A stretch of 62,202 nt of DNA, filler included, from Candidatus Fermentibacterota bacterium (GTDB lineage: Bacteria > JAFGKV01), in NCBI GenBank assembly GCA_016928395.1. It is 8 parts of 8 records of this genome, joined end to end, with 100 filler letters (N's around TTAATTAATTAA, not from the genome) between each part and the next. Parts side by side here need not be neighbours in the genome. Positions count along the whole stretch, not along the records: positions 1 to 17,594 come from JAFGKV010000185.1; 7 more parts are not named here. One strand, 5' to 3'. The notes below the pieces were generated by a model. It ran no database searches, was not told the origin of the DNA, and saw nothing but the letters and a program-made list of their open reading frames with translations. Shown piece by piece: positions 224 to 57,620 of this stretch (the first letter of the stretch is position 1; each line of letters begins with the position of its first letter). The translations under genes and the position numbers were made by a program.

Positions 224-1612
224 TCAGGGAAGAACGACCTGGTAGTCGAATTCCCCGACACGGTTGGAGCGGGCCAACTCAACCCCTCCTGCATTCACGG
301 CCATGAGCAGGTATGTCCAGTTCTGCGCAGGGTCGCCGAGTCCGTTCGGTGTGGACCACGTTGTCTCAGTGGAAGGCAGTTGCGTCAGCCGGTTGTCGAA
401 TCCGGGCGCCGCACCGGGAACAAAGATTTGGTTGTTGCCGGCGCCGAATACCCAGAATTCGGCCGCACCGTCGTACGGCTCCCAGCTCAAGGTGTAGAGC
501 CCGCCGGCCTCGGTGCCGGCGATGATGAGCAGTTCGGGTACTACGTGCGCGTACTTCAGATCGAGATTCGTTCCGTCATAGTAGGCGATGTGGGGCCTCT
601 CCGTGGCGTCCAGGCAAAGCGACGCGTACCGGCCGACGCTGAGGGACTGATCGATGAAACGCCGATTCCAGCCCGCGCCGTCCTTGTAGGCATACTCCAG
701 GATTCCCCAGTCCGCATTGTAGTAGGCCACGTGGGGTAAACCCTCTCCGTCCACTGCCAGCGAGGTGTACATGGCATTGAAGTAGCTTGGATCGAGAAAC
801 TCGCTCTGCCACCCCGTGGCAGTCTTGCGCACGTATTTCGGAGGCCCGTCGGCCATGTGGGTGATGTGGGGCCTGTCTGACCCATCCAGGGCCAGGGAGC
901 TATGCTCTCCGTAGACTACTCACCCGCCGGGAGGCACATCGGCGTTCTCGATGTGCCATCCCACGGCATCCTGATAGGCGTACCGTAACGCGGTGCACGA
1001 CGTGAACGAGGCATAGCTGATGTGGGGGAATCCCGCCGAGTCCAGAGCCAGCGATGCGTAGGTGCCCGCATTGCCCGCGGCATCGACAAGTTGGGTCTGC
1101 CATGCACCGCCATCGTGGAACGAGTAGCAAAGGTCCTGATCTATCTCATCGTAGTACGCGATGTGGGGCCGGCCCGCCCCGTCAAGGGCCAGCGAGCTGT
1201 ACGAGCCGACCATGCCTGTGCTCGCCACGGTCTGCACGATCCAGGTGGCGCCCTCCCACCGGGCATACTTCAGATCATAGCCGAGCCCATCCATGTAGCT
1301 GATGTGGGGCGCACCGCCGGCATCCAGGGCCAGGGAAGCGAAGAACCCCGGATCACCCGAGTCGTCCACTACCTGGAACACCCACGCGGCGCCGTCCCAC
1401 CAGGCATAGCAAAGACTTTGGTCCGTAGCGTCATGGTAGGCGATGTGCGGCCTGCCAGATGAGTCCAGGGCCAGGGAGCTGAAGCTGCCCCGGTCGCCCG
1501 GGGCGTCGACCGTCGTGATCTTCCACCCGTCAGGCGGGGGGGCGCTCTGGGCAGTTTTTCCCAGGAGGGCGAACACAACGAGAGAGACGAAGGCGAGGAT
1601 CCTGAGCATCAT
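224..1612 (-). pseudogene. Secreted 7-repeat beta-propeller protein with SNRVGEFD C-terminal domain, interrupted by one in-frame TGA at 920-922
   Basis: Signal peptide MMLRILAFVSLVVFALLGKTAQS; seven repeats of W..VD..G.xSLALD..G.PHI.Y continuing in the same frame across the TGA (PGG*VVYGEHSSLALD); ORFs 920..1930 and 224..856 are in frame. Confidence 0.75.
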
Positions 1613-19816: not shown

Positions 19817-20348
19817 GGTGATACCTCCCATGCAGAAAGTCCATGCGGGAATAGACGCCGCACAGTTGGCCGCAGAAGTCGCAGCGGTACCCCGCGGAAG
19901 ACGTCGGAGGAACTGCTTCGACCCAACCTGCCAGCTCTGCGGGCTCCCCGCTCTCCCCATCAAGGACGGCCGTGGGGTCGGCGATCACTTCGGCCGCCCC
20001 TTCCGCCGCCGCCCGCTCCACAGCGGGCGTCTCGATCCCTTCATTCGGTGGGCTCGCTGCCTCGGCCGGACCCTGATGCGTCACATCTGGCCCCTGGGTC
20101 CCCTGTTTCTGCTGGAGACGTTCACGATAGCGCCGCTGCCGCTCGGCGTGGTTCGCCGCTCCCCGTTCGGTCTGTTGGTACTTGCGGCGAGCTCTGCGGC
20201 AGGACTCTTCCCTACTCTTTTCCGCGCACTCTTCCCCACAGTAGATCTGTCCGCGATCGCAACGGGAGCAGATCCGAACCTGGCGCCGGCAACGCGCGCA
20301 GAGGAACAGACGGTGGGTAGCAGCGCACTCCTGATCAGCGCACCCCAT
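19797..20348 (-). CDS. IS21-internal accessory protein with Cys-rich (Zn-finger-like) motifs
   Basis: [17 protein letters not shown], basic helix, C-terminal CDFC; overlaps the istA start and lies inside the IS end. Confidence 0.65.
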
Positions 20349-20369
20349 GGCGACGCACCGTGCCGGGGC

Positions 20370-20477
20370 TGGACAAAGGGCGCGATTCAGGGGATACTGA
20401 TCCCGGGATCAGCGACCTCAATCGCTGGACGGCCCGAAGAGACCCAGGGTGGGCAACACGCGAGGGTCTCTTTTTTT
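20370..20477 (+). ncRNA. Putative promoter plus ~70-nt counter-transcribed small RNA inside the IS21 leader
   Basis: TGGACA-N17-GATACT (20370-20398); hairpin CAGCGA-cctcaa-TCGCTG; terminator stem AAGAGACCC...GGGTCTC followed by T7 (20471-20477). Confidence 0.5.
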
Positions 20478-20721
20478 GTGCCCCGCGGCGGCGTTCTACC
20501 CGAAGAACGGGCCGAGGGGAAGGGGGTAGGTGAGGCGGGCGGTGAGACAGCCTCCGAAATCTCGGGGCTAGGCCGGCTCACCCGCCTTCAGGCGAGGGGG
20601 GGGAAGGGCAGCAAGCCGGAGGGCGGCCGTCAGGCCGCTGCGTCGGACGGTGATAACCGGGCGACCGGGGCGTTCCCAGGCCAGACCGCCGGAATCACGC
20701 GGTTTCAGATCGGCGTTGACA

Positions 20722-22568
20722 TCCGGTCGTCGGAGAACCTGGGCGATATCGGGATGGCCTTTATCCGCGGAGAAACCGCTGATTCCACAGTCGAGGGTTT
20801 CACGCTTGACAAGATCAGTGTGGTTTTCCAGGGTTCCTCCTCTCCCAGGTTGACCAACTGCACCATCAAGGGGAGTTTCGGCGTATTGTGCGAAGGTGAC
20901 TCCGCGCCGGTGTTCACGAATTGTGTGCTCACGGAGAATTGGGGGAACTGCGGTGGAGGCGTGTATTGCACGAACAGTTCCTGCCCTGAGTTCACCGATT
21001 GTGTGATCACCGGGAACGTTACGGATGATCAAATGATTGGCGGCAGAGGCGGTGGCCTCTGTTGCGATGAGAACTCCTGCCCCGTGCTAACCAACTGCAC
21101 GATCACAGGGAATTCGGCTTGTTGGGGTGGCGGCGTTTATTGTAGAAGCAGAGGCCGGCCTGTACTAGCCAATTGCACGATCACGGGGAACGTGGTTGGC
21201 TCTGGCCTTTTGTGCGACGCATCGTCCCCTGAAATTGTAAACTGCATCATTTGGGACAATCCAGGTGGGTCGATTACTCGAGTGGACGGCGCCTCAGACC
21301 CAAACGTTTCCTTTTCCTGTATCGAAGGTGATGAGGTATGGCCTGGTGAAGGAAACATCAATGAAGATCCGCTTTTTTGTGGCTGGGACGGTGCAGAGAT
21401 CCGTGTAACCAATCAGGGCGAGTTTGAGGACGCGCTGACAGGTTTCAGCCTTTCTCTTTCGATCGAGTCGCCGTGCCTTGGGACGGGCCGCGATGGAGCT
21501 GATATGGGCGCTGATACAGGAACCTGCGATGAAGTTGGGGACATTTCACGCCGTATCCAACTCTCAAGAGGTGTATATTCCATAGTCGGATTCAGCCTTT
21601 TTCATAATGTGAGTATCGCCGGTTCAGGAGAAGATGCGACTGTCATCGAAGGAACCGTTTCTGGACTGAGAACCGGAGCAAGGCTGAGCCAACTGAGAGT
21701 AACAAAGGGAGGAGGCGTACATGTAGGATCAGGAGAGGCGCCTGAGATTTCAGACTGCATGATAACCGGGAACGGGGGCGGTGGCATCTCCTGCGCGTTT
21801 CGCTCCTCTCCTATCATCACCAATTGTACGATCAGCGAAAACTCGGCCTGTTTAAGTGGTGCTGGTGTTTCCTGCGTCTCGGCATCTCCTAAATTCACCA
21901 ATTGTAAGATCATCAGGAATTCGACAATCTGCGACGATGGTTATGGTGCGGGGATTGACTGCACCGGTGTCTCCTCTCCCGTGTTCACCAATTGCACGAT
22001 CACGGGGAACCTAGCAACGTTCGGCGGTGGTATCTACTGCGACAGTGACTCCCTCCCCGTGTTCACCAACTGCACGATTTCGGGGAACCTGGCCGAGGCC
22101 GGCGGTGGCGTGTACTGCCGGCTTGACTCCTCACTAATCCTTACCAACTGCATCTTCTGGGCTAATTCCGGCGGGTCTATTTGTGACGTAGAGCCTTCAG
22201 ATGCACAGATATCCTATTCCTGTATCGAAGGGGAGGAAATCTGGCCCGGTGAGGGGAACATTAGCACCGATCCCCTCTTCATTCAGCCCGGCCACTGGGA
22301 CGACAACGATACACCAGACGATACCAGCGACGACATCTGGATCGAAGGCGACTACCACCTCCAGCCCGGCTCACCCTGCATTGACACCGGCACCTCCGAA
22401 GGCGCACCAACAACGGACATCGAAGGAAACGGCAGACCCTGCGGCGCTGGGGTCGACATGGGTGCATACGAGATGGGCAGTTGCCCGGAACCGCCCGAAC
22501 GCTTCGTCCGTGGCGACTCCAACTCAGACGGGAAGCTCGACATCGCAGACCCTATCTACACCCTCCTC
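20722..22568 (+). pseudogene. Parallel beta-helix repeat protein with dockerin-like C-terminus, 5' end cut off by IS21 and 3' end by the contig break
   Basis: Repeats of SSPxFTNCTITGN.A..GGG; DYHLQPGSPCIDTG...VDMGAYE; FVRGDSNSDGKLDIADP; homologous sequence begins right at the IS terminus with no signal peptide. Confidence 0.75.
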
Positions 22569-23113: not shown

Positions 23114-24742
23114 CTACGGTACCGAGCTGTAGTCAAACTCCCCGACGCGATTCGACCTGACCAACTCCTGCTCCCAGGCGTTTACAGCCAGGATCAGATA
23201 CGTCCAATCGTGATAGGGGATGGCGACGCCGTTTGAACTGGACCATGCGGTGGTGGGAGGAGACACCTGGGCCACGCGATGAGTCCAGGGTGATGTCAGG
23301 CCGGGTTCGAAATACGCCTGGTTCTCGGCCCCGTAGACCCAGTATTCAGCCACGTCTATCACCTCGGGCCACTGCAAGACCAGCTGCCCTCCGGTCACAC
23401 TGCTGGACAGGACCAGCGGTGGCGGTATCGCGAATACGTATGCTCTCCCGTCATCGGTCAGTTCGGCATCTTCGTTGTAGGCTCCCGCCACAACGTCATC
23501 GAGTCCGTCGTTGTTGACATCGCCCGCACCCGACACCGAGAACCCGAAGTACCCATCAATCTCGGGATGCGTTGACAGCAGTGTGTACAGGGGCTTGCCC
23601 GTGCATCCGCTGAAGACGTAGCCCCTCCCGGCGCTGACGGCACCGCCGTCTTCCAGGTAGGCACCCACCGTCACATCGGCGAAGCCGTCACCGTTCACGT
23701 CTCCCGCGCCCGAGACCGAATAACCGAAGAAGCCTACCGCCTGCGCATTGGGAGACACTAGCGTATAGAGAAGGCCGCCCGTCTGCCCGCTGAAGACATA
23801 GGCTCTTCCCGTATATGGTGGTCCACCGTCTTTGTAATGGGCTCCTACGATCAGGTCGGCATAGCCGTCGGCATTGACGTCTCCCGCGCCCGAGACCGAA
23901 TAGCCGAAGTAGCTCAGCGTGTCTGCGTTCGGTGACACAAGGGTATGGAGCAGAACACCCGTCTGCCCGTTGAATACATACGCTCTGCCGGCGTCGGGAG
24001 CCGGGGCGCTCTCGTAGCACGCGCCGACGATCACGTCATCGAATCCATCGTTTTTGACATCCCCCGCGCCCGAGACGGAGATGCCGAAGTGGCCATAGGA
24101 TTCGGGGTTTGGGGATTCAAGCATCATGTGTAGGGCGCCGGTCTGCCCGCTGAAGATGTATGCCCTGCCTGTCTGTGTGTCTCCACCGTCCTCGTAGTGT
24201 GCGCCCACGATCAGGTCGGCGAATCCATCGCCGTCGGTCTCTCCCGCGCCGGAGACGCTGGTGCCGAAATACCCGATGAATTGGGCATTGGGGGACAGCA
24301 GGGTGTGGATCGGACCACCCGTCTGCCCACTGAAGACATAAGCCCTCCCCGCGTTCACCTCGCCGCCGTCTTCGCTGTCCGCTCCGACCACTATGTCGGC
24401 ATAGCCATCATTGTCGACGTCTCCGGCGCCGGACACGGAGCAGCCGAAGTAGCCGTCGATCTCAGGGTTCGGTGACATCAGCACATGGAGCGGGTTGCCC
24501 GTCCGTCCACTCATGATGTAGGCCCGGCCCGCATCCGCCGCTCCGCCATTCTCGTAGCACGCTCCCACAGCGAGATCCGCGTACCCGTCGATGTCAGTGT
24601 CGCCGGCCCCTGAGACCGAGAGGCCAAACGCACCCGAAACCTCAGGATTCGGCGACATGAAGGCGTGAAGCACTTGGGCGCGTGCGTCTTGGATACTGGC
24701 ACTGACCAAGACCCAGATGAGAGCTCGAGCGAATCCCTTCAT
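23114..24742 (-). CDS. Secreted FG-GAP (integrin-alpha-like) beta-propeller protein with SNRVGEFD C-terminal domain
   Basis: Signal peptide ending ARA; seven FGxSVSGAGDVxxDGxxDxxVGA...GRAY repeats; C-terminus RSNRVGEFDYSSVP. Confidence 0.9.
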   Translation of the reverse strand: MKGFARALIWVLVSASIQDARAQVLHAFMSPNPEVSGAFGLSVSGAGDTDIDGYADLAVGACYENGGAADAGRAYIMSGRTGNPLHVLMSPNPEIDGYFGCSVSGAGDVDNDGYADIVVGADSEDGGEVNAGRAYVFSGQTGGPIHTLLSPNAQFIGYFGTSVSGAGETDGDGFADLIVGAHYEDGGDTQTGRAYIFSGQTGALHMMLESPNPESYGHFGISVSGAGDVKNDGFDDVIVGACYESAPAPDAGRAYVFNGQTGVLLHTLVSPNADTLSYFGYSVSGAGDVNADGYADLIVGAHYKDGGPPYTGRAYVFSGQTGGLLYTLVSPNAQAVGFFGYSVSGAGDVNGDGFADVTVGAYLEDGGAVSAGRGYVFSGCTGKPLYTLLSTHPEIDGYFGFSVSGAGDVNNDGLDDVVAGAYNEDAELTDDGRAYVFAIPPPLVLSSSVTGGQLVLQWPEVIDVAEYWVYGAENQAYFEPGLTSPWTHRVAQVSPPTTAWSSSNGVAIPYHDWTYLILAVNAWEQELVRSNRVGEFDYSSVP

Positions 24743-24775: not shown

Positions 24776-26668
24776 TCAGTCTTCAATCGAAGGCCCCTTC
24801 GGTTCTCCGAGATCATGAGACGGCATACCTATCCCGTTGTTCGTAACAAGGTCGCGCTTGGTCGGGTCTGATGCCACAATGTCGCGCATTGCAGTGGGGC
24901 GCTCACGTGACAGCTGGGCTCGGTAGTCCTCCCTGGCTCGCTCTTGCTCCACGTGTTGCCGATCGGCAGCCTCGGGGTAGAGGTATGAGTCGGTTCGCGC
25001 GGCTTCGCAGAGGTCGAGCCGTTTCGCCTCGTACCCACGGCGCTTTGCCACGACGCGATAGTCGAAGGGAAGGTTCGACGCTCCCCCGCGGAACTCGACG
25101 ACATCGAACCCCGTGTCACTCTTGCTGACATAGACCCCCTCACACTCCCCGCCCAACTGCACGAACACCATCATCGGATTCGCGTCATCGATAGTGACGG
25201 TTTCCAGGAAGACCTCATCCAACTCGACGTGGGCGCGACCGTCCGCCAGCCGGCTGTGCCCGAAGTCTTCGAACCAGTTCTCGGGACTCTCCTGGCAGTA
25301 GAGCAGCGTCGGTCCCTTCGATGTACGCACCACACAGCTCTTGGTGCCCGATCCTGCCAGGTTGCCTTGATAGTAGACTCCATACCCCGAGGGTGAGCAG
25401 TTCTGCCCGTAGACCCCGTAGGAGACTCCTATGGAACCTTCCGACTTGCCGTATACCGCGAACCCACCACCCGGCACATGAACCAGGCCATACACGCCCA
25501 GGGCGCTCGTGCCCGTTGTGGCAACGACCTCGCCTACGACCCCGCACCCGCCCATGGCCGCCGTGTTCACACCATACACTCCGTAGCCGAAGCCGCCCGC
25601 CTTTCCCTGCACGCCATTGGCGAACCCACCTGTGGTTTCTCCGTATACTCCCGCGCCGTGGTAGGCGTGGTGAAGCCCGTATACCCCATAGGTCGTGGCA
25701 TTCTCTATGGCCTCGGCGACTCCCTGCACCGCCCTGCCGTCGGTGGAGTTGGTCTGACCGAACACACCCCAGGCGGATCCGCTGACAGCATTGTTCTGTC
25801 CCATGACCGCGTAGCCATCCGGGGCGCAGAGGTAACCCTCGACTCCGCGGGGATCCCCGCTGGTTGCGCTGGCATACCCGAATACGCCGCACCCCTCCGA
25901 TGATGCGGATTCGCCGTAGACGCCGTAGGCGTTGCCGGAGGCGGCCGAGGCTGTTCCGTGGATTCCGTCGCTGATGGGACTGGCCGCGACCGCATGCACG
26001 CCCATGCTGTAACCACCGGCATTCGGGGCCTGGGCGTAGATCGCCCTACCTTCGATGGAGAGCGTCTGAGCGAACACCGCGTGCGCTTCCCCGGGCGTAC
26101 CATAGTTGCGCGCGAATACGCCGCTTCCATTGGGAGAATGACACTCCGCATAGAGCCCATGGGTAAAGCCCGTCGAGGGCGTCGAGGATGCGCGGAGTGC
26201 GGACGCATCAGCTCCGGCATTCGAGTTGAAGGCGGCGAGGATCGACCCAGGCAAAGATCCACTCACCTCGGTGCCGGCCACCAGTCCACTGGCCATGTAG
26301 GCATAACCAACGCTTACCAGGCGCTGCCGGGGGCTCTGCGAGATGAGGTTGAAGTAGACCTGCAACCAGTGGTCCTCGTTGAATGCCAGTCCCAATGCCG
26401 GCATGCTACCGGCTCCCAGCACTACGCTGAACACGCCCCCGGACACCGCCACGGTTTGTGGCCCGCTATCCCAGAGCTGCGTGCCCCCGGTTTCGGCATC
26501 ATAGATCTGAAACCGCATGGGATACGACGCATCTGCCACCGGAGTCCCTCCGCTGTCCGTGACTTTGCCCTGGTAGCTGATCATCTGCGGGATCTCCGCA
26601 TGAACCACCGCCATTCCCCACAGGGCCACGATCAACAATCCACGCACGATACCCGACCATTCTCGCAT
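24776..26668 (-). CDS. Secreted Gly-rich repeat (fibre/beta-solenoid-like) protein, paralogue of 46436-48466
   Basis: AGGAGG RBS; signal peptide; IPQMISYQGKVTDSGGTPV N-domain; GVxG repeats; KSCVV.TSKGPTL.YCQESPENWFED C-domain. Confidence 0.8.
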   Translation of the reverse strand: MREWSGIVRGLLIVALWGMAVVHAEIPQMISYQGKVTDSGGTPVADASYPMRFQIYDAETGGTQLWDSGPQTVAVSGGVFSVVLGAGSMPALGLAFNEDHWLQVYFNLISQSPRQRLVSVGYAYMASGLVAGTEVSGSLPGSILAAFNSNAGADASALRASSTPSTGFTHGLYAECHSPNGSGVFARNYGTPGEAHAVFAQTLSIEGRAIYAQAPNAGGYSMGVHAVAASPISDGIHGTASAASGNAYGVYGESASSEGCGVFGYASATSGDPRGVEGYLCAPDGYAVMGQNNAVSGSAWGVFGQTNSTDGRAVQGVAEAIENATTYGVYGLHHAYHGAGVYGETTGGFANGVQGKAGGFGYGVYGVNTAAMGGCGVVGEVVATTGTSALGVYGLVHVPGGGFAVYGKSEGSIGVSYGVYGQNCSPSGYGVYYQGNLAGSGTKSCVVRTSKGPTLLYCQESPENWFEDFGHSRLADGRAHVELDEVFLETVTIDDANPMMVFVQLGGECEGVYVSKSDTGFDVVEFRGGASNLPFDYRVVAKRRGYEAKRLDLCEAARTDSYLYPEAADRQHVEQERAREDYRAQLSRERPTAMRDIVASDPTKRDLVTNNGIGMPSHDLGEPKGPSIED

Positions 26669-27041
26669 GATATGCCTCCTGAAGGACCGCGCACTCCATG
26701 CGAATCGATACCGCGCCGGGCGAGGAGTGCACAATCACCCGGCAGAGATGCAACATTAGATGTACGTTGCGTATGGGTCAGATCTCGCACACCAGGGGTC
26801 GACCGGTCCGGTGGGGTGATATCAGGGAGGGCGATTGGGGTATTGACTGGTGAAGGATCGTGTATATGGTACGCCTCCGGAAGCACACCAGACAGGAGGA
26901 TGATGCAGTGAGTGCTGCTGATTGGGGACGAAGAGGTATTGGCTTTCGTGATGTCGTGGGAGGGGAAGCAAAGCGGAGGCTTCCATCGCAGGAGTATCTC
27001 GAGTGGACCGGCCATGGAGAGACCGGAAGGGAGGCGGAGCC

Positions 27042-33492: not shown

Positions 33493-33895
33493 CGCGGTTC
33501 GGCTTCCTCAGGATGACCCCCGCTTGACACTCATCCGAACGGCCAGTGACACAGCCTGGCAACCCCGCAAGGCGCCGTCACCTCTGCTGCGCGATTCCTA
33601 TCTTCGGCGGCGCCCACCCCGCTTCGTGCCACAACCGCCGTGCGTGTCTCCGCAGATTCGGCTCCCAGGGGGTGTCTTCCCGGCTGGAAGCCGAGACCAC
33701 GGCTCCCTTGGCCGCGCCTGGCGTGCACACGTTTCGAGCAGTTCCCGACCCTGGTGTGCCGGAGAATATGGCAAAGCCTGCCTTCGCGGGCAACCAGGAG
33801 GCACCCTGTCGTCGTGAAGCCTTGAGCTCCTCACGTTGGGCAGTACCTTGTGGGGGCGTGTAGGATCACTTCACTCTACGCCAAGGGGGTTCGAT

Positions 33896-35098
33896 ATGCG
33901 ATGCTACGTCACGATCCTCTGTACCTTCCTGAGTGTCGTTGCGTCGAGTGCGCGTGCCCAGGTTCTCATCAACGAGTTCACGCCAAAGGGAACCGAGTGG
34001 ATCGAACTCGTCAATGCCTCTGACGCCGCGGTCGCGGTCACCGGGTGGACCGTTGACGATGGAAGTCCCTCCCATGCGGATACTCTGGACTCAACGTGGG
34101 GTATCTCCGTGCTTCTCGGAGGCGAGTACTTCTGGCATGCAAGAGTGAATGGGTGGGATCTCAGCAATGACGGTGAGTATGTCGTTCTGCGCGACGACAC
34201 CGGCGCCACGGTTGACTCTGTCGCCTACGGCACCAAAGGAGGCGCGCCGATCGCCCCTTCCGGCTGGAGTTGTGCGCGCAGGCCTGACGGGACCAGCAGT
34301 GGCGACTGCGCCTTGGATTGGGATATCGATCCTGCGCCCACGCCCGGCGTCATGAATGATGTCCCTGGAGGCGTGAATCTGGGATCCAGCCTCATCATCA
34401 ACGAAATCGATCCAACCCACCTGGTTCCCGATACGCCTGACTCCGTTGAGCTCTACAACCCCACAAATGAGGATGTCAGCCTCGTCGGCTGGCTGATCTC
34501 CGATGGGGACGATGTTGATACGCTCAGCGCAGGTGTCGCACCCGCGGGCGGATATGCCGTATTAGCGCAAGGCGAGCCGGGCAGCTTCACCTTCGACTTC
34601 ACCACGAATGATGTCTGCTATCTGTGGACAGACGGGTTCGTGCGTGTGAACCAGCTTGGCTGGGCCGGTGAATCTGATGAGTACTCGTTGCAGCGATGCC
34701 CCGATGGAGCGGGCCCCCACGAGGGCTACAACTGGGCCTCCTCCGGCGGCGGCAGCACGCTTCTTGATCTTCCTGCGACGTGGGGTTCGGCAAACCCAGT
34801 GCCGGCGCCGCACGTGGTTGACCTCGAGTTGTCGCTGCTTAATCCTTCCACCGCAGTTCTGGCGTGGACGATATCGCCCCTTGCCGATTCCTACCGGATC
34901 TACCGCACCGAAGCGTGGTACTTCTCGGGACAGGAGTCGTTGTGGGTAACGGCGGCCGCATCGCCGTGCACCGTGACGACAGGTATTGGAAACCCTTTTC
35001 TTGACTATGCGTACATCGTCAAAGCTGTGGGGCCGACCGGCGAATCCGCCCCATCCAACCCCGTCGGTGAGTTCGACGGATTCTGGGACATTCCCTGA
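33896..35098 (+). CDS. Secreted protein with two lamin-tail domains and an SNPVGEFD C-terminal domain
   Basis: Signal peptide ending ARA; VLINEF..EWIELVN, LSNDGE, PTPG..N, IINEI..VELYN; C-terminus PSNPVGEFDGFWDIP. Confidence 0.85.
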   Translation: MRCYVTILCTFLSVVASSARAQVLINEFTPKGTEWIELVNASDAAVAVTGWTVDDGSPSHADTLDSTWGISVLLGGEYFWHARVNGWDLSNDGEYVVLRDDTGATVDSVAYGTKGGAPIAPSGWSCARRPDGTSSGDCALDWDIDPAPTPGVMNDVPGGVNLGSSLIINEIDPTHLVPDTPDSVELYNPTNEDVSLVGWLISDGDDVDTLSAGVAPAGGYAVLAQGEPGSFTFDFTTNDVCYLWTDGFVRVNQLGWAGESDEYSLQRCPDGAGPHEGYNWASSGGGSTLLDLPATWGSANPVPAPHVVDLELSLLNPSTAVLAWTISPLADSYRIYRTEAWYFSGQESLWVTAAASPCTVTTGIGNPFLDYAYIVKAVGPTGESAPSNPVGEFDGFWDIP

Positions 35099-46136: not shown

Positions 46137-46435
46137 NNNNNNNNNNNNNNNNNNNNNNNNNNNNNNNNNNNNNNNNNNNNTTAATTAATTAANNNNNNNN
46201 NNNNNNNNNNNNNNNNNNNNNNNNNNNNNNNNNNNNAGTCGGCAGTAGGCAACCGGCAGTCAGCGGCCCGGCCCCTGAATGCGGAGGAAGGCGAGGAAGC
46301 TTGCGGAGAGGATTTGGGGACCGCAGGTTCCCTTCCGTCACAGAGTGGTGCAGGAGGGTGCCGGGCAGAGAGCTGTCGGCGCCCTTTGTCTTTGTGGGAC
46401 AAAGGATAATACGCGCGAGCGAGGAGGAGGAATCC

Positions 46436-48466
46436 ATGCGGACCCGTGTCTCGCCATTTGTGGTTTTCAGTATCGTCATTGGGTTGGTATTCCCGGTTAT
46501 TGCCGACATCCCGCAGGTCATGACGTACCAGGGCAAGGTGACGGACTCCGGTGGCACCCCGGTCGTTGATGGTGGCTACACCATGACCTTCGATGTCTAC
46601 GATGCAGCCAGTGGAGGCACCTCGCTCTGGAGCAGCGGCGCACTGACCGTGATGGTGAGCGGCGGGGTGTTCAGTGTCTTGCTGGGAGACACCGGGCAAC
46701 CGGCTCTGAGCCTGGACTTCGCTTCGGACTACTGGGTTGAAGTGGACATTGCGGGCGACGCGCAGACGCCAAGGGTTCGCCTCGGCTCGGTTGGCTATGC
46801 GTACATGGCGAGCGGGCTGGTGGCGGGGACTGAGGTGAGCGGGTCGGTGACCAGCGGGACCTCCGCGGCCATCAGGGGCACGAATACGGCCACGACGGGC
46901 ACCAGGTACGGGCTCCACGGCCGGAGCTACTCCACCTCGGGCAGGGGCGTGTACGGCGAGGCCGCCGCCCTCTCAGGCACGACCTACGGGGTGTACGGCG
47001 CGGCTGCGTCGACCACGGGCTATGCGGGCTACTTCCAGGGCAATGCCCGTGTCACCGGCAACCTGACCGTGGATGGAGCCCTTGCTGCTTCCGGCATAGG
47101 TGACATCACGGCGATCATCGCGGGCACCGGACTCATCGGCGGCGCCACCTCCGGCGATGCGACGCTGCACGTCGCGGTGCCCCTGGCTCTCACCGCCTCC
47201 AATGCGAATGCCATAGTATCGGGCACCAATTCAGGTGCAACGGGCGCTTCCCCAGGCGTGCAAGGCACGAGCGCCTCCACCGACGGTAGGGGCCTCTACG
47301 GCGTGGCGTTCGCCACATCAGGAAACACCTATGGCGTGCGCGGAGAGAGCGCTTCCACCTGGGGCGTCGGCGTCCACGGTCTGGCCTCCGCCACCTCGGG
47401 CACCACCTGCGGCGTGCGCGGGGAAAGCGCCTCCACCTGGGGCAGGGGCGTCCACGGTCTGGCGACCGCCGCCACGGGCACGACCTACGGCGGCTACTTC
47501 AGGAGCGACGCTGACGATGGCTACGGCGTCTACAGTCTAGCCTCCGCCACCTCAGGCATCACCTACGGCGTGCGTGGGGAGAGCTCCTCCACCGCCGGCA
47601 GGGGAGTCTCCGGCAGTGCTTCCGCCACCTCAGGCATCACCTACGGAGGCGACTTCGGGAGCGCTTCCACGGCCGGCCGGGGCGTCTTCGGTCTAGCGAC
47701 CGCCGCCACGGGCACGACCTACGGCGTGTATGGGCGGAGCTCCTCCACGGCTGGCCGGGGCGTCTATGGCTTGGCCACCGCCTCCACGGGCACCACCCAC
47801 GGCGTGTATGGGGAGAGTGCTTCCAGCGGCTGGGGCTTTGGCGTCTACGGCGTGGCCGTCGCCACCACGGGCCTCACGTGTGGTGTCTTTGGGAAGACCA
47901 ACTCCGCCGATGGCTATGGCATGTACTACCAGGGAGGACTTGCCGGCACGGGCACGAAGAGTTGTGTGGTGAAGACCTCCAAGGGCCCGACGCTGATGTA
48001 CTGCCAGGAGAGCCCCGAGAATTGGTTCGAGGACGTGGGCAGGGGGCGACTCGTTGGCGGCTTCGCACACGTGGAACTAGACCCTGTGTTCGTTGAGACG
48101 GTGACCATCGACGAGGTTCACCCCATGGAGGTCTTCGTCCAGTTGAGGGATGACTGCCGCGGCGTATTCGTGAAGGCGGGGATGACAGGATTCGACGTCA
48201 GGGAGCTGCAGAGCGGGACGAGCGACGCGGAGTTCTCTTATCGCGTGATGGCCAAGCGCAAGGGGTTTGAATCGAAGCGTCTGGACTACTGCGCGGCCGC
48301 GGAGCGGGATTCGTACCTGTTCCCGGAGCTTCGGGAGCAGGAGCGTCGGGAAATGGAAGAGGAACGCGCCCGCCACGAGGAAGAGCGTACGCGAATGGAA
48401 GAAAAGCGAGCACGGATGGAGCGGGAACGGCCCGAGCCGATCAGGGTGTCGGAGGCGGGCCGGTAG
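46436..48466 (+). CDS. Secreted Gly-rich repeat (fibre/beta-solenoid-like) protein, paralogue of 24776-26668
   Basis: GGAGG RBS; signal peptide; IPQVMTYQGKVTDSGGTPV; ~26-aa GRGVxGLAxAxxGTTYGVxGxSxST repeats; YCQESPENWFED domain; charged tail. Confidence 0.85.
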   Translation: MRTRVSPFVVFSIVIGLVFPVIADIPQVMTYQGKVTDSGGTPVVDGGYTMTFDVYDAASGGTSLWSSGALTVMVSGGVFSVLLGDTGQPALSLDFASDYWVEVDIAGDAQTPRVRLGSVGYAYMASGLVAGTEVSGSVTSGTSAAIRGTNTATTGTRYGLHGRSYSTSGRGVYGEAAALSGTTYGVYGAAASTTGYAGYFQGNARVTGNLTVDGALAASGIGDITAIIAGTGLIGGATSGDATLHVAVPLALTASNANAIVSGTNSGATGASPGVQGTSASTDGRGLYGVAFATSGNTYGVRGESASTWGVGVHGLASATSGTTCGVRGESASTWGRGVHGLATAATGTTYGGYFRSDADDGYGVYSLASATSGITYGVRGESSSTAGRGVSGSASATSGITYGGDFGSASTAGRGVFGLATAATGTTYGVYGRSSSTAGRGVYGLATASTGTTHGVYGESASSGWGFGVYGVAVATTGLTCGVFGKTNSADGYGMYYQGGLAGTGTKSCVVKTSKGPTLMYCQESPENWFEDVGRGRLVGGFAHVELDPVFVETVTIDEVHPMEVFVQLRDDCRGVFVKAGMTGFDVRELQSGTSDAEFSYRVMAKRKGFESKRLDYCAAAERDSYLFPELREQERREMEEERARHEEERTRMEEKRARMERERPEPIRVSEAGR

Positions 48467-56482: not shown

Positions 56483-57620
56483 ACGGATTCTTGTAGCTGC
56501 CTTCCTTCTTGCGTGTGTGGCGGGTTTCCCCGTATTCGCGCAAGGCCCTCCCTACCCCATGGGGCATCGCACCATCACTTTCCACGACTCGGCGCGCAAC
56601 GATCGCGCCATCTTGACCGAGATCTACTACCCTGGGGTTTCCGCGGGCGACAATGTGCCGACGGCGGAGCCTACGGGCGAAGGGTTCCCGGTGGTTACGT
56701 TCGGCCATGGGTACCTCATGACTTGGAGTGCCTACGAGAACATCTGGAGTGCTCTCGTTCCGGAGGGATACGTGGTCGCCTTGCCGCGTACCGAGGGGGG
56801 CTTGTCTCCCGGCCACCTTGACTTCGGGCTCGATCTGGCATTCCTGGTAAGCCGGTTGCGCATCGAGAATGCCGAGCCCTCGTCACCCTTCCATGGAGTG
56901 TTGGCGGAGGCTGCGGCCATCATGGGGCATTCCATGGGCGGCGGCGCCGCGGTGTTGGGCGCCGGTTCAGATAGCACCATCACTGCCTTGGCGAACCTGG
57001 CTGCGGCCGAGACAAGCCCCTCGGCCATTGCGGCTGCGATGACCGTCTTCTGTCCCTCGCTGGTGGTCTCGGGCTCCTACGACGGCGTTGCCCCGCCCGG
57101 TCAGCATCAGATTCCAATCTATGCCGCTCTCTCCTCGCCCTGCAAGACATACCTCTCCATCCTCGGGGGTAGCCATTGCCAGTTCGCCGAGTCGAACTTC
57201 TACTGCGAACTTGGTGAGATCGGTGCGCCGACTCCGTCGATCGATCGCCCGACCCAGCACGCCTTGGTCTCATCGTTCCTCGTTCCGTGGCTTGACTTTC
57301 ATCTGAAGGGAGACCACACGGCCTGGCATGGGTTCGAGGCGTTGCTCTTTTCCTCCGAAGCCGTTTCTCTCCAGCATGAGTGCGACATAGTGCCTCCCGC
57401 GCCTCCGGAGATCGTCTCCATATCCCGTGAGACTTTGACAGTCACTCTGACCTGGCGGCAGTCTCCCTTCGCCACGGGTTACCACGTGTACGGGTCTACC
57501 GACGCGTTTCACAATTCGCCGGGGAACCTAGATGGCGTCACTGCGGACACCTCGTGGTCGGCCATCGAGGAAAGCGTGCAGCGTTTCTACCGGATCACCG
57601 CGGTAAAGGGTACATCCTGA
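56475..57620 (+). CDS. Secreted chlorophyllase-like alpha/beta hydrolase with short FN3-like C-terminal domain
   Basis: Signal peptide, FGHG, GHSMGG, D and GGSHCQF; C-terminus LTW...YHVYGS...FYRITAV. Confidence 0.85.
   Translation: MRERILVAAFLLACVAGFPVFAQGPPYPMGHRTITFHDSARNDRAILTEIYYPGVSAGDNVPTAEPTGEGFPVVTFGHGYLMTWSAYENIWSALVPEGYVVALPRTEGGLSPGHLDFGLDLAFLVSRLRIENAEPSSPFHGVLAEAAAIMGHSMGGGAAVLGAGSDSTITALANLAAAETSPSAIAAAMTVFCPSLVVSGSYDGVAPPGQHQIPIYAALSSPCKTYLSILGGSHCQFAESNFYCELGEIGAPTPSIDRPTQHALVSSFLVPWLDFHLKGDHTAWHGFEALLFSSEAVSLQHECDIVPPAPPEIVSISRETLTVTLTWRQSPFATGYHVYGSTDAFHNSPGNLDGVTADTSWSAIEESVQRFYRITAVKGTS

Follow-up and report, generated by a model that had tools for sequence, protein, structure and literature searches.

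In cellulosomes, many enzymes share a C-terminal dockerin tag that binds a common cohesin scaffold, and in chaperone-usher and type V pili each protein has its fold completed by a terminal strand of its neighbour. Substrates of the T9SS are defined by a CTD on their own chain; the type A CTD has a conserved Lys near its C-terminus, and type A substrates engage SprA-PorV (PMC10994853, in the portions of that text drawn on here). In Porphyromonas gingivalis, the pieces of the gingipain/HagA T9SS polyproteins are held together non-covalently via ABM1-ABM2 motifs, and an altered ABM1 releases the catalytic domain of Kgp (excerpts of PMC10319874 and PMC5266723). In Tat hitch-hiking, a partner carries subunits that lack a signal of their own (PMC4273604, in excerpt).

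The window analyzed in this work is the whole stretch of 62,202 nucleotides, filler included, from a Candidatus Fermentibacterota bacterium (G000), one of three genomes of its phylum considered here (the others are G001 and G002). Proteins encoded in it end in a common domain, here referred to as the tail. The reading favoured here, to which we assign a probability of roughly 60%, is that the spare strand of this FN3 domain completes a shared adaptor, adaptor-1, which in turn links about 90 CTD-less cargos to a CTD carrier, adaptor-2. The evidence suggests that the C-terminal module of T9SS substrates has been split in three, the tail being one part and the type A CTD residing on a different gene, that of the carrier. 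Cargos would first reach the periplasm by Sec or Tat and would receive their signal for export or surface display in trans.

Like the type A CTD (TIGR04183 / PF18962), as far as the excerpted source describes it, the tail is a beta-sandwich of about 100 residues that ends unrelated signal-peptide proteins of the same cargo families, but it has the FN3 fold, matches no such model and has no conserved terminal Lys; in addition, its export signal would reside on a separate carrier, and it is predicted to bind an adaptor and not PorV. Its likeness to ABM1/ABM2 is one of arrangement, and whereas the gingipains, in the excerpts used, form one cleaved CTD-bearing polyprotein, the parts are encoded by separate genes here and one adaptor would serve about 90 cargos. 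As in pilus donor-strand complementation (PMC4789730, in excerpt), a terminal strand is predicted to complete the fold of another protein, but no polymer would form; adaptor-1 has one gap and no matching donor strand. The folds differ from those of the dockerin-cohesin pair, the tail not being an EF-hand dockerin, and no dockerin family was among the Pfam matches of the tails. Unlike Tat hitch-hiking, the process proposed here would cross the outer membrane. With the FN3 domains of PF00041 the tail shares the core fold and the W/Y/Y pattern, but differs in its extra conserved terminal strand, its single terminal copy and its predicted dedicated partner. FN3, type A CTD and donor strands are known parts, and their arrangement is new as far as the literature was searched: a search including few subscription journals and no supplements retrieved no description of this tail-adaptor sorting system, and no report of T9SS export of a non-covalent multi-protein complex was found among the literature searched, which likewise included few subscription journals.

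Table 1. Features of the window related to the tail and the proteins that bear it
Feature	Position	Strand	Basis
FN3 core, propeller-protein tail	266..538	-	AF2 model, fold searches, PDB sequence matches
FN3 core model strands	residues 13-18, 21-26, 34-41, 57-62, 67-70, 81-88, 94-98 of window:227-559	-	AF2
Terminal docking (donor) strand (predicted), residues 99-111, N-R-V-G-E-F-D-Y and five further residues, the last Pro	227..265	-	
Cargo 1: signal peptide, BNR_4-like beta-propeller and long tail, with one in-frame TGA	224..1612	-	
In-frame TGA of cargo 1 (candidate codon for selenocysteine or read-through)	920..922	-	
Long tail, FG-GAP protein (gene 23114-24742)	23114..23425	-	A1 match
Long tail, lamin-tail-domain protein (ORF 33836-35098)	34807..35098	+	A1 match
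Short tail, alpha/beta hydrolase: FN3 ending after strand F, without strand G and docking strand	57390..57620	+	

The features are collected in Table 1. The initial annotation had described three tails with their terminal sequences on three different contigs, and all three were recovered (C231, C235 and C237), as was the shorter related version that it had reported for the hydrolase (C239). Pairwise BLAST joins only the first two of these tails (44%, E 2e-25), the third and fourth joining by profile only. With an HMM built from the three tails, 52 of the 71,641 six-frame ORFs of G000 were matched at iE<1e-3; in each of them the match lies no more than 26 residues from the end of the ORF, which in one case is a contig end. 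Since HMM iteration drifts into generic FN3 domains, counts rest on position and on a fixed profile, A1, which has 73 rows, was built largely from G000 tail proteins and was counted at iE<1e-4. A1 gave 81 long terminal, 10 short terminal and 9 internal matches in G000, i.e., 91 of 100 were terminal, with a single terminal copy per protein, and it gave no match on reversed G000 ORFs. The internal matches comprise one cut by a contig end, one apparent frameshift and seven ordinary FN3 domains without the extra strand. As to the short tails, a clean end after strand F is seen in six, whereas two continue into unrelated extensions and another two are apparently frameshifted; the window hydrolase covers A1 positions 5-87 only (iE 1.7e-11).

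At E<=1e-8, 87, 98 and 59 tail matches were obtained in the three genomes of the phylum (59 in G002). Among the phylum loci inspected, 32 of 33 tail matches lie within 30 residues of a stop, and the domain is C-terminal in 45 of 48 database homologs. A scan of a genome collection with a single window tail as query gave no matches, and the ESM Atlas returned unnamed or weak FN3 clusters only. The free tail is probably restricted to this lineage, as the initial annotation had proposed. Its expectation of many C-terminal copies was also borne out, and none of the outcomes that it had named as counting against it was encountered, namely, a mostly internal or cytoplasmic domain, few copies, or a full match to a known model. 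A terminal Pro, claimed for all three tails, is not a general trait and was found in 44 of the 81 long tails only, and the SNxVGEFD motif recurs in degenerate form (S in 68/73 rows, G in 69/73, E in 55/73, D/E in 59/73 and F/Y in 59/73).

The predicted FN3-like fold found support in the profile, an AF2 model and two fold searches. The model of the window tail (pLDDT 93.5) is an all-beta, seven-stranded sandwich, and its Foldseek and VIA-align matches are FN3 domains, with FN3 Z values of about 9-10. The PDB sequence matches are likewise FN3 domains, spanning profile positions 7-98 and mostly ending by position 98, and the FN3 domain of chitinase A1 matches the tail profile at E 5e-11. Along with the seven strands, the tail has the Trp of strand B and the Tyr residues of strands C and F that mark the FN3 fold, W26 being invariant and Y35 near-invariant in the alignment. 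VGExD[FY], one of its best conserved parts, extends beyond the FN3 domain and forms an extra strand without counterpart in internal FN3 domains. The tail does not belong to the catalogued sorting domains, in keeping with the initial claim, as none of the Pfam and NCBIfam models for such domains matches the 73 tails: TIGR04183 and PF18962 gave 0 matches at E<=0.05, and the only CTERM-protein model matched was MXAN_2561_fam, weakly (best E 0.002). A conserved Lys is absent from the common residues of the last 17 alignment columns. A protease-sortase or membrane-anchor reading was considered and rejected; the tail ends have no hydrophobic helix or transmembrane segment, and the strand tolerates extensions, with about 21 of 72 long tails continuing 13-38 residues past it.

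It might be argued that the tail lacks a dedicated partner, being either an ordinary FN3 spacer or the remnant of a truncated fusion that gene shuffling has spread. Its core is a plain FN3 domain, and A1 matches 130,466 cluster representatives among 1.84 billion proteins, the best 150 being multi-FN3 proteins, which swamp this search to the point that it gives no range for the tail. The window tail itself does not match PF00041, but 12 of the 73 tails do so weakly at E<=0.05 (best 9.6e-6), and one tail reaches 24.7 bits against the Pfam fn3 cut-off of 25. This explanation is nevertheless very improbable, given the terminal, single-copy placement, the conservation of a strand that internal FN3 domains lack and the existence of the complementary adaptor, microprotein and mirror split, as well as of the predicted complex, all of which are described below.

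Clear parallels emerge between the proteins that carry the tail and those that carry a CTD. Pfam assigned peptidase C25 (9), S8 (4), M14 (2), C10 (1), PAD (1), FG-GAP (8) and DUF362 (4) domains, as well as GH13, GH18 and PLD, to 64 of 83 fetched tail proteins, and no CTD family. A signal heuristic, which is crude in that it over-calls and misses fragments, gave 46 SPI, 3 Tat, 0 SPII and 22 without signal for 71 long-tail proteins, a distribution similar to that of 109 CTD proteins (79 SPI, 1 Tat, 2 SPII and 27 none) and above the background of 707 SPI and 58 SPII in 2291. Within these limits, the initial view that the cargo is of the SPI and not the SPII type holds, as long tails go with SPI-type or Tat signals and no lipobox. 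The C25, C10, PAD, S8, M14 and DUF362 families carry tail or CTD alternately within one genome. A CTD profile of our own found 140 terminal copies in G000, none on tail proteins, and paralogs that carry a CTD were identified at E<1e-15 for 29 of 67 long-tail cargos; tail and CTD are consequently taken as alternatives on like cargo. For example, contig C251 encodes a paralog of the window FG-GAP protein (51% identity over 400 aa) that ends in a type A CTD. G000 also has SprA (a 1892-aa frame), 7 PorV-like matches and 74 places that match TIGR04183. PorU had no match above the cut-off in the three genomes, partial matches being C25-family proteins, and the search for the motor gene GldM was silent, as was its control, which makes it uninformative.

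These data bear on the possibility that the tail acts autonomously, as a new class of T9SS CTD that a PorV paralog recognizes without mediation, the adaptor being incidental. The tail is modelled as a C-terminal seven-stranded beta-sandwich, as known for CTDs (PMC10994853, in the portions cited), and does not occur together with the type A CTD on similar cargo; several PorV-like genes are available, one of them on contig C110 together with two tail genes, and G002 has tails without an adaptor-1 match. We consider this improbable. The listed fold matches of the tail are FN3 domains and none is a CTD structure, although unlisted families may exist, and the CTD models match none of the 73 tails. 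The conserved residues lie on the strand that is missing from the adaptor, the C-terminal extensions of the long tails run on beyond it, and in the fusions described below the domain is internal, upstream of a true CTD. Furthermore, 6 of the 7 PorV-like genes either adjoin a CTD-type or SusC-like gene or show no tail gene in their visible surroundings, and no pattern of a dedicated PorV adjoining tail genes was seen among the seven.

A number of other secreted proteins were recorded along the way. In several operons of G000 (contigs C240, C135, C55, C159 and C151), PorV-like genes come immediately after a SusC-like gene and the gene for a CTD-type protein of their own. At least five secreted proteins (G000 C39, C42, C181, C200 and C232) end in a third kind of motif, W-G-x-I-K-x-x-F, located behind an FN3 domain. 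Eight small secreted proteins without Pfam match (190-260 aa frames; L010:9429-10046, L012:304-873, L016:301-1077, L023, L024, L025, L030 and L040) consist of a short Gly-rich domain, a long tail and a C-terminal extension that often ends in Arg; adaptor-1 likewise ends in Asp-Arg. Two secreted fibre-like proteins of the window (24776-26734 and 46301-48466) have neither tail nor CTD, and their N-termini weakly resemble Bdellovibrio mosaic adhesive trimers (NF053851, below cut-off). A beta-helix protein (19818-22568, contig C234) that ends at the contig edge has a terminal motif that we take to be dockerin-like; this may be another anchoring type or a sign of a mis-binned contig.

The propeller gene of the window also stands apart by its in-frame TGA, located between signal peptide and tail. 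The G001 ortholog (L004, G001:C233; about 60% identical) has a TGA at the matching place, and in both genes a Cys is encoded about 24 residues upstream of the TGA and a short hairpin lies some 13 nt downstream. Propeller paralogs have no Cys at the TGA position. A tRNA-Sec was identified in G000, and SelB in G000, G001 and G002. From these sequence features, the propeller is a candidate secreted selenoprotein, or a candidate for programmed read-through that would control tail attachment. A motif scan for further selenoproteins gave spurious frames only.

The adaptor came to light through 3 of the 48 tail homologs (P0185, P0191 and P0198), in which the tail is N-terminal and fused to two repeats of about 85 residues each. 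In these fusions the last strand of the tail aligns with the first strand of repeat 2, and the tail strand therefore equals the one with which repeat 1 begins. Only a single further protein containing the repeats is encoded in G000, namely, adaptor-1 on contig C146, in which a signal peptide is followed by repeat 1 without its first strand, whereas repeat 2 retains its own; compared with its intact homologs, i.e., repeat 2 and the fused repeat 1, adaptor-1 is thus an acceptor lacking one strand. In alignment A3, the N-terminus is visible for 12 close stand-alone adaptor-1 proteins, i.e., that of G000 and 11 homologs from the database. All of them start directly after the predicted signal peptide, and their first residue, like that of the G001 protein, is the one after the missing strand. 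The 11 further close homologs are 61-83% identical, a twelfth match being identical to the G001 protein. Adaptor-1 is single-copy and 61-84% conserved, whereas identity to the window tail is only 16-54% among the tails. In close relatives, the adaptor-1 gene is covered by RNA contigs of three studies and is hence presumably transcribed, although such contigs cannot give its level or rank expression; the neighbouring pta gene lacks long RNA contigs, to which no weight is given here. A distant stand-alone two-repeat protein (P0215, 27% identity) also lacks the first strand and lies behind a propeptide-like segment.

The complete G001 adaptor-1 has 217 residues and no CTD. The gene after it encodes adaptor-2, composed of a signal peptide, a PH domain (a name coined here from its N-terminal Pro-His motif), FN3 and a type A-like CTD. 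In all 7 loci with downstream DNA, the gene behind adaptor-1 encodes a PH domain, adaptor-2 being complete in two (L142 and L145) with a type A-like CTD in both, and pta precedes adaptor-1 in five loci. In G000, the contig breaks off within the adaptor-1 gene and the assembly yielded no PH-domain gene; the carrier is therefore documented in relatives only. A point against the model is that adaptor-1 had no match in G002, which is 98% complete and in which 59 tail matches, the microprotein and SprA are present; it also lacks pta, which fits an assembly gap at adaptor-1 without proving it. The third gene of the adaptor operon at L145:7686-8549 encodes PH-FN3 and the W-G-x-I-K-x-x-F motif and is a possible second carrier, and a secreted protein of two PH domains without CTD (L227:4140-4862, G002:C20) adjoins an ECF sigma-like gene.

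In other bacteria, a single polypeptide has the order cargo-FN3-strand-repeat1-repeat2-PH-CTD (P0201 and P0202). The repeats occur in 10 of 398 sampled unrelated genomes, with fused loci in G013, G077, G158, G182, G219, G334, G341 and G366. The full fusion with CTD is present in G013, G334 and G366; the chain stops after PH in G219 and after repeat 2 in G158, G334, G341, G366 and G077, with a CTD or PH-CTD gene next in two cases. At L167 (G077), the fused FN3-strand-repeat module is followed by a PH-like gene. In P0201 and at L159 (G366), a second PH domain is inserted within FN3, between strands F and G, and this sequence arrangement suggests that two repeats may bind two PH domains. In G094 and G126 a mirror split was found, FN3 strand G being the first element of the adaptor. 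As this split predicts, most of the A1 matches in G094 (20) and its congener G254 (23) stop before strand G, those at the loci read ending at or near the stop, and one such tail is among the 5 A1 matches of G126. In the best 30 loci of the 398-genome sample, with at most 12 candidates scored per genome, the extra strand was seen in fusions only. SprA_N was present in 9 of the 10 repeat-bearing genomes and in 99 of the 398 overall, a link whose Fisher P of 2e-5 is overstated since related genomes are not independent.

Complex prediction argues for direct binding of tail and adaptor. Alone, adaptor-1 is modelled by AF2 with a mean pLDDT of 70, residues 1-6 and 71-77 and the C-terminal linker being below 50. 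The complex with the window tail, for which the G001 protein (80% identical) was used since that of G000 is truncated, scored 0.87 (0.82, 0.88 and 0.87 in individual runs), compared with 0.00 for the best of three controls; of 157 solved complexes, 116 attain the mark applied to this score, as do 2 of 215 mismatched pairs, counts that are rough for the alignments used here, that of the adaptor including three fused rows. Partner pLDDT was 95, and contacts agreed 100% between runs. In the model, tail residues 99-111 run antiparallel to adaptor residues 70-77, in the register 104-73, 106-71 and 101-76, and touch residues 1-10, so that the segments disordered in the lone adaptor lie in the predicted interface, although pLDDT values of different predictors are not strictly comparable. 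Split-gene halves can pass this test through likeness to solved structures, but no solved relative of adaptor-1 was found by PDB sequence search or by Foldseek with the pLDDT-70 model, so that memory of solved structures is unlikely to account for the score. The model supports binding as predicted, and the tail strand very probably docks into adaptor-1. A point against the model is that one adaptor groove would have to serve about 90 cargos.

A 46-codon protein encoded on contig C63 starts with a signal peptide, and the 21 residues that follow correspond to FN3 strand G and docking strand, i.e., the strands that the short tails lack. It is kept in all three genomes of the phylum (78% in G001 and 51% in G002), and its 21-residue peptide resembles the N-terminus of the mirror-type adaptors. 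From this correspondence, the microprotein would complete six-stranded tails such as that of the window hydrolase, offering a docking strand to adaptor-1.

The mechanism that we favour may be summarized as follows. As read from the genes, cargos with a Sec- or Tat-type signal end in FN3 and VGExD[FY], and the one-chain module of other bacteria is split here into cargo tails, adaptor-1 (repeat 1 minus its first strand, and repeat 2) and adaptor-2 (PH-FN3-CTD), the adaptor genes lying side by side. The tail strand is predicted to pair antiparallel with residues 70-77 of adaptor-1 and to order its N-terminus, and short six-stranded FN3 cargos would obtain strand G and docking strand from the secreted microprotein. 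Adaptor-1 would then bind the PH domain of adaptor-2, a contact proposed from gene order and fusions, and the CTD of adaptor-2 would engage SprA-PorV, the assembly being pulled through SprA and either held at the surface or released. As to the initial proposal of a new secretion or attachment signal, the FN3 C-terminal tag stands, but the evidence favours a docking tag and not a T9SS-independent stand-alone signal, and the role of the tail in secretion or attachment is a putative one.

It is also conceivable, if unlikely, that the tail docks for assembly or tethering, the cargos being periplasmic or exported otherwise, e.g., by a type II system, and then captured in the manner of dockerin-bearing enzymes on a cohesin scaffold. 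All the binding evidence fits this equally well. Docking need not imply T9SS, since G077 (100% complete) has the fused module and no SprA_N match; pilin-like, prepilin-peptidase-like and PilB-like ORFs, read by eye, lie near sprA, and four DUF362 proteins with Tat-type signals bear tails. However, a type A CTD is retained on the split-off carrier and forms the end of most full fusions, cargo families including DUF362 alternate between tail and CTD within one genome, and SprA_N accompanies the repeats in nearly all genomes that have them. We lean slightly towards the wider view that an ancestral T9SS C-terminal module has been cut differently across phyla, with plug-bearing enzymes sharing an adaptor and a CTD carrier and the 21-residue peptide acting as a plug converter.

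If the model is true, about 40% of the tail- or CTD-marked secretome (91 tails and 140 CTDs) is invisible to CTD-based prediction, the translocon is loadable through a shared adaptor, and T9SS transport of non-covalent complexes becomes directly testable. One mechanism would explain why 59-98 proteins in each genome end in an uncatalogued domain, and would also account for an orphan microprotein and for the six-stranded FN3 tails of other lineages. A short strand and its small acceptor are, in addition, a candidate protein-coupling tool. Should the plug reading be true, these bacteria would practise T9SS hitch-hiking on a universal carrier, by means of a counterpart of dockerin-cohesin with a new fold and a genetically encoded three-part connector.
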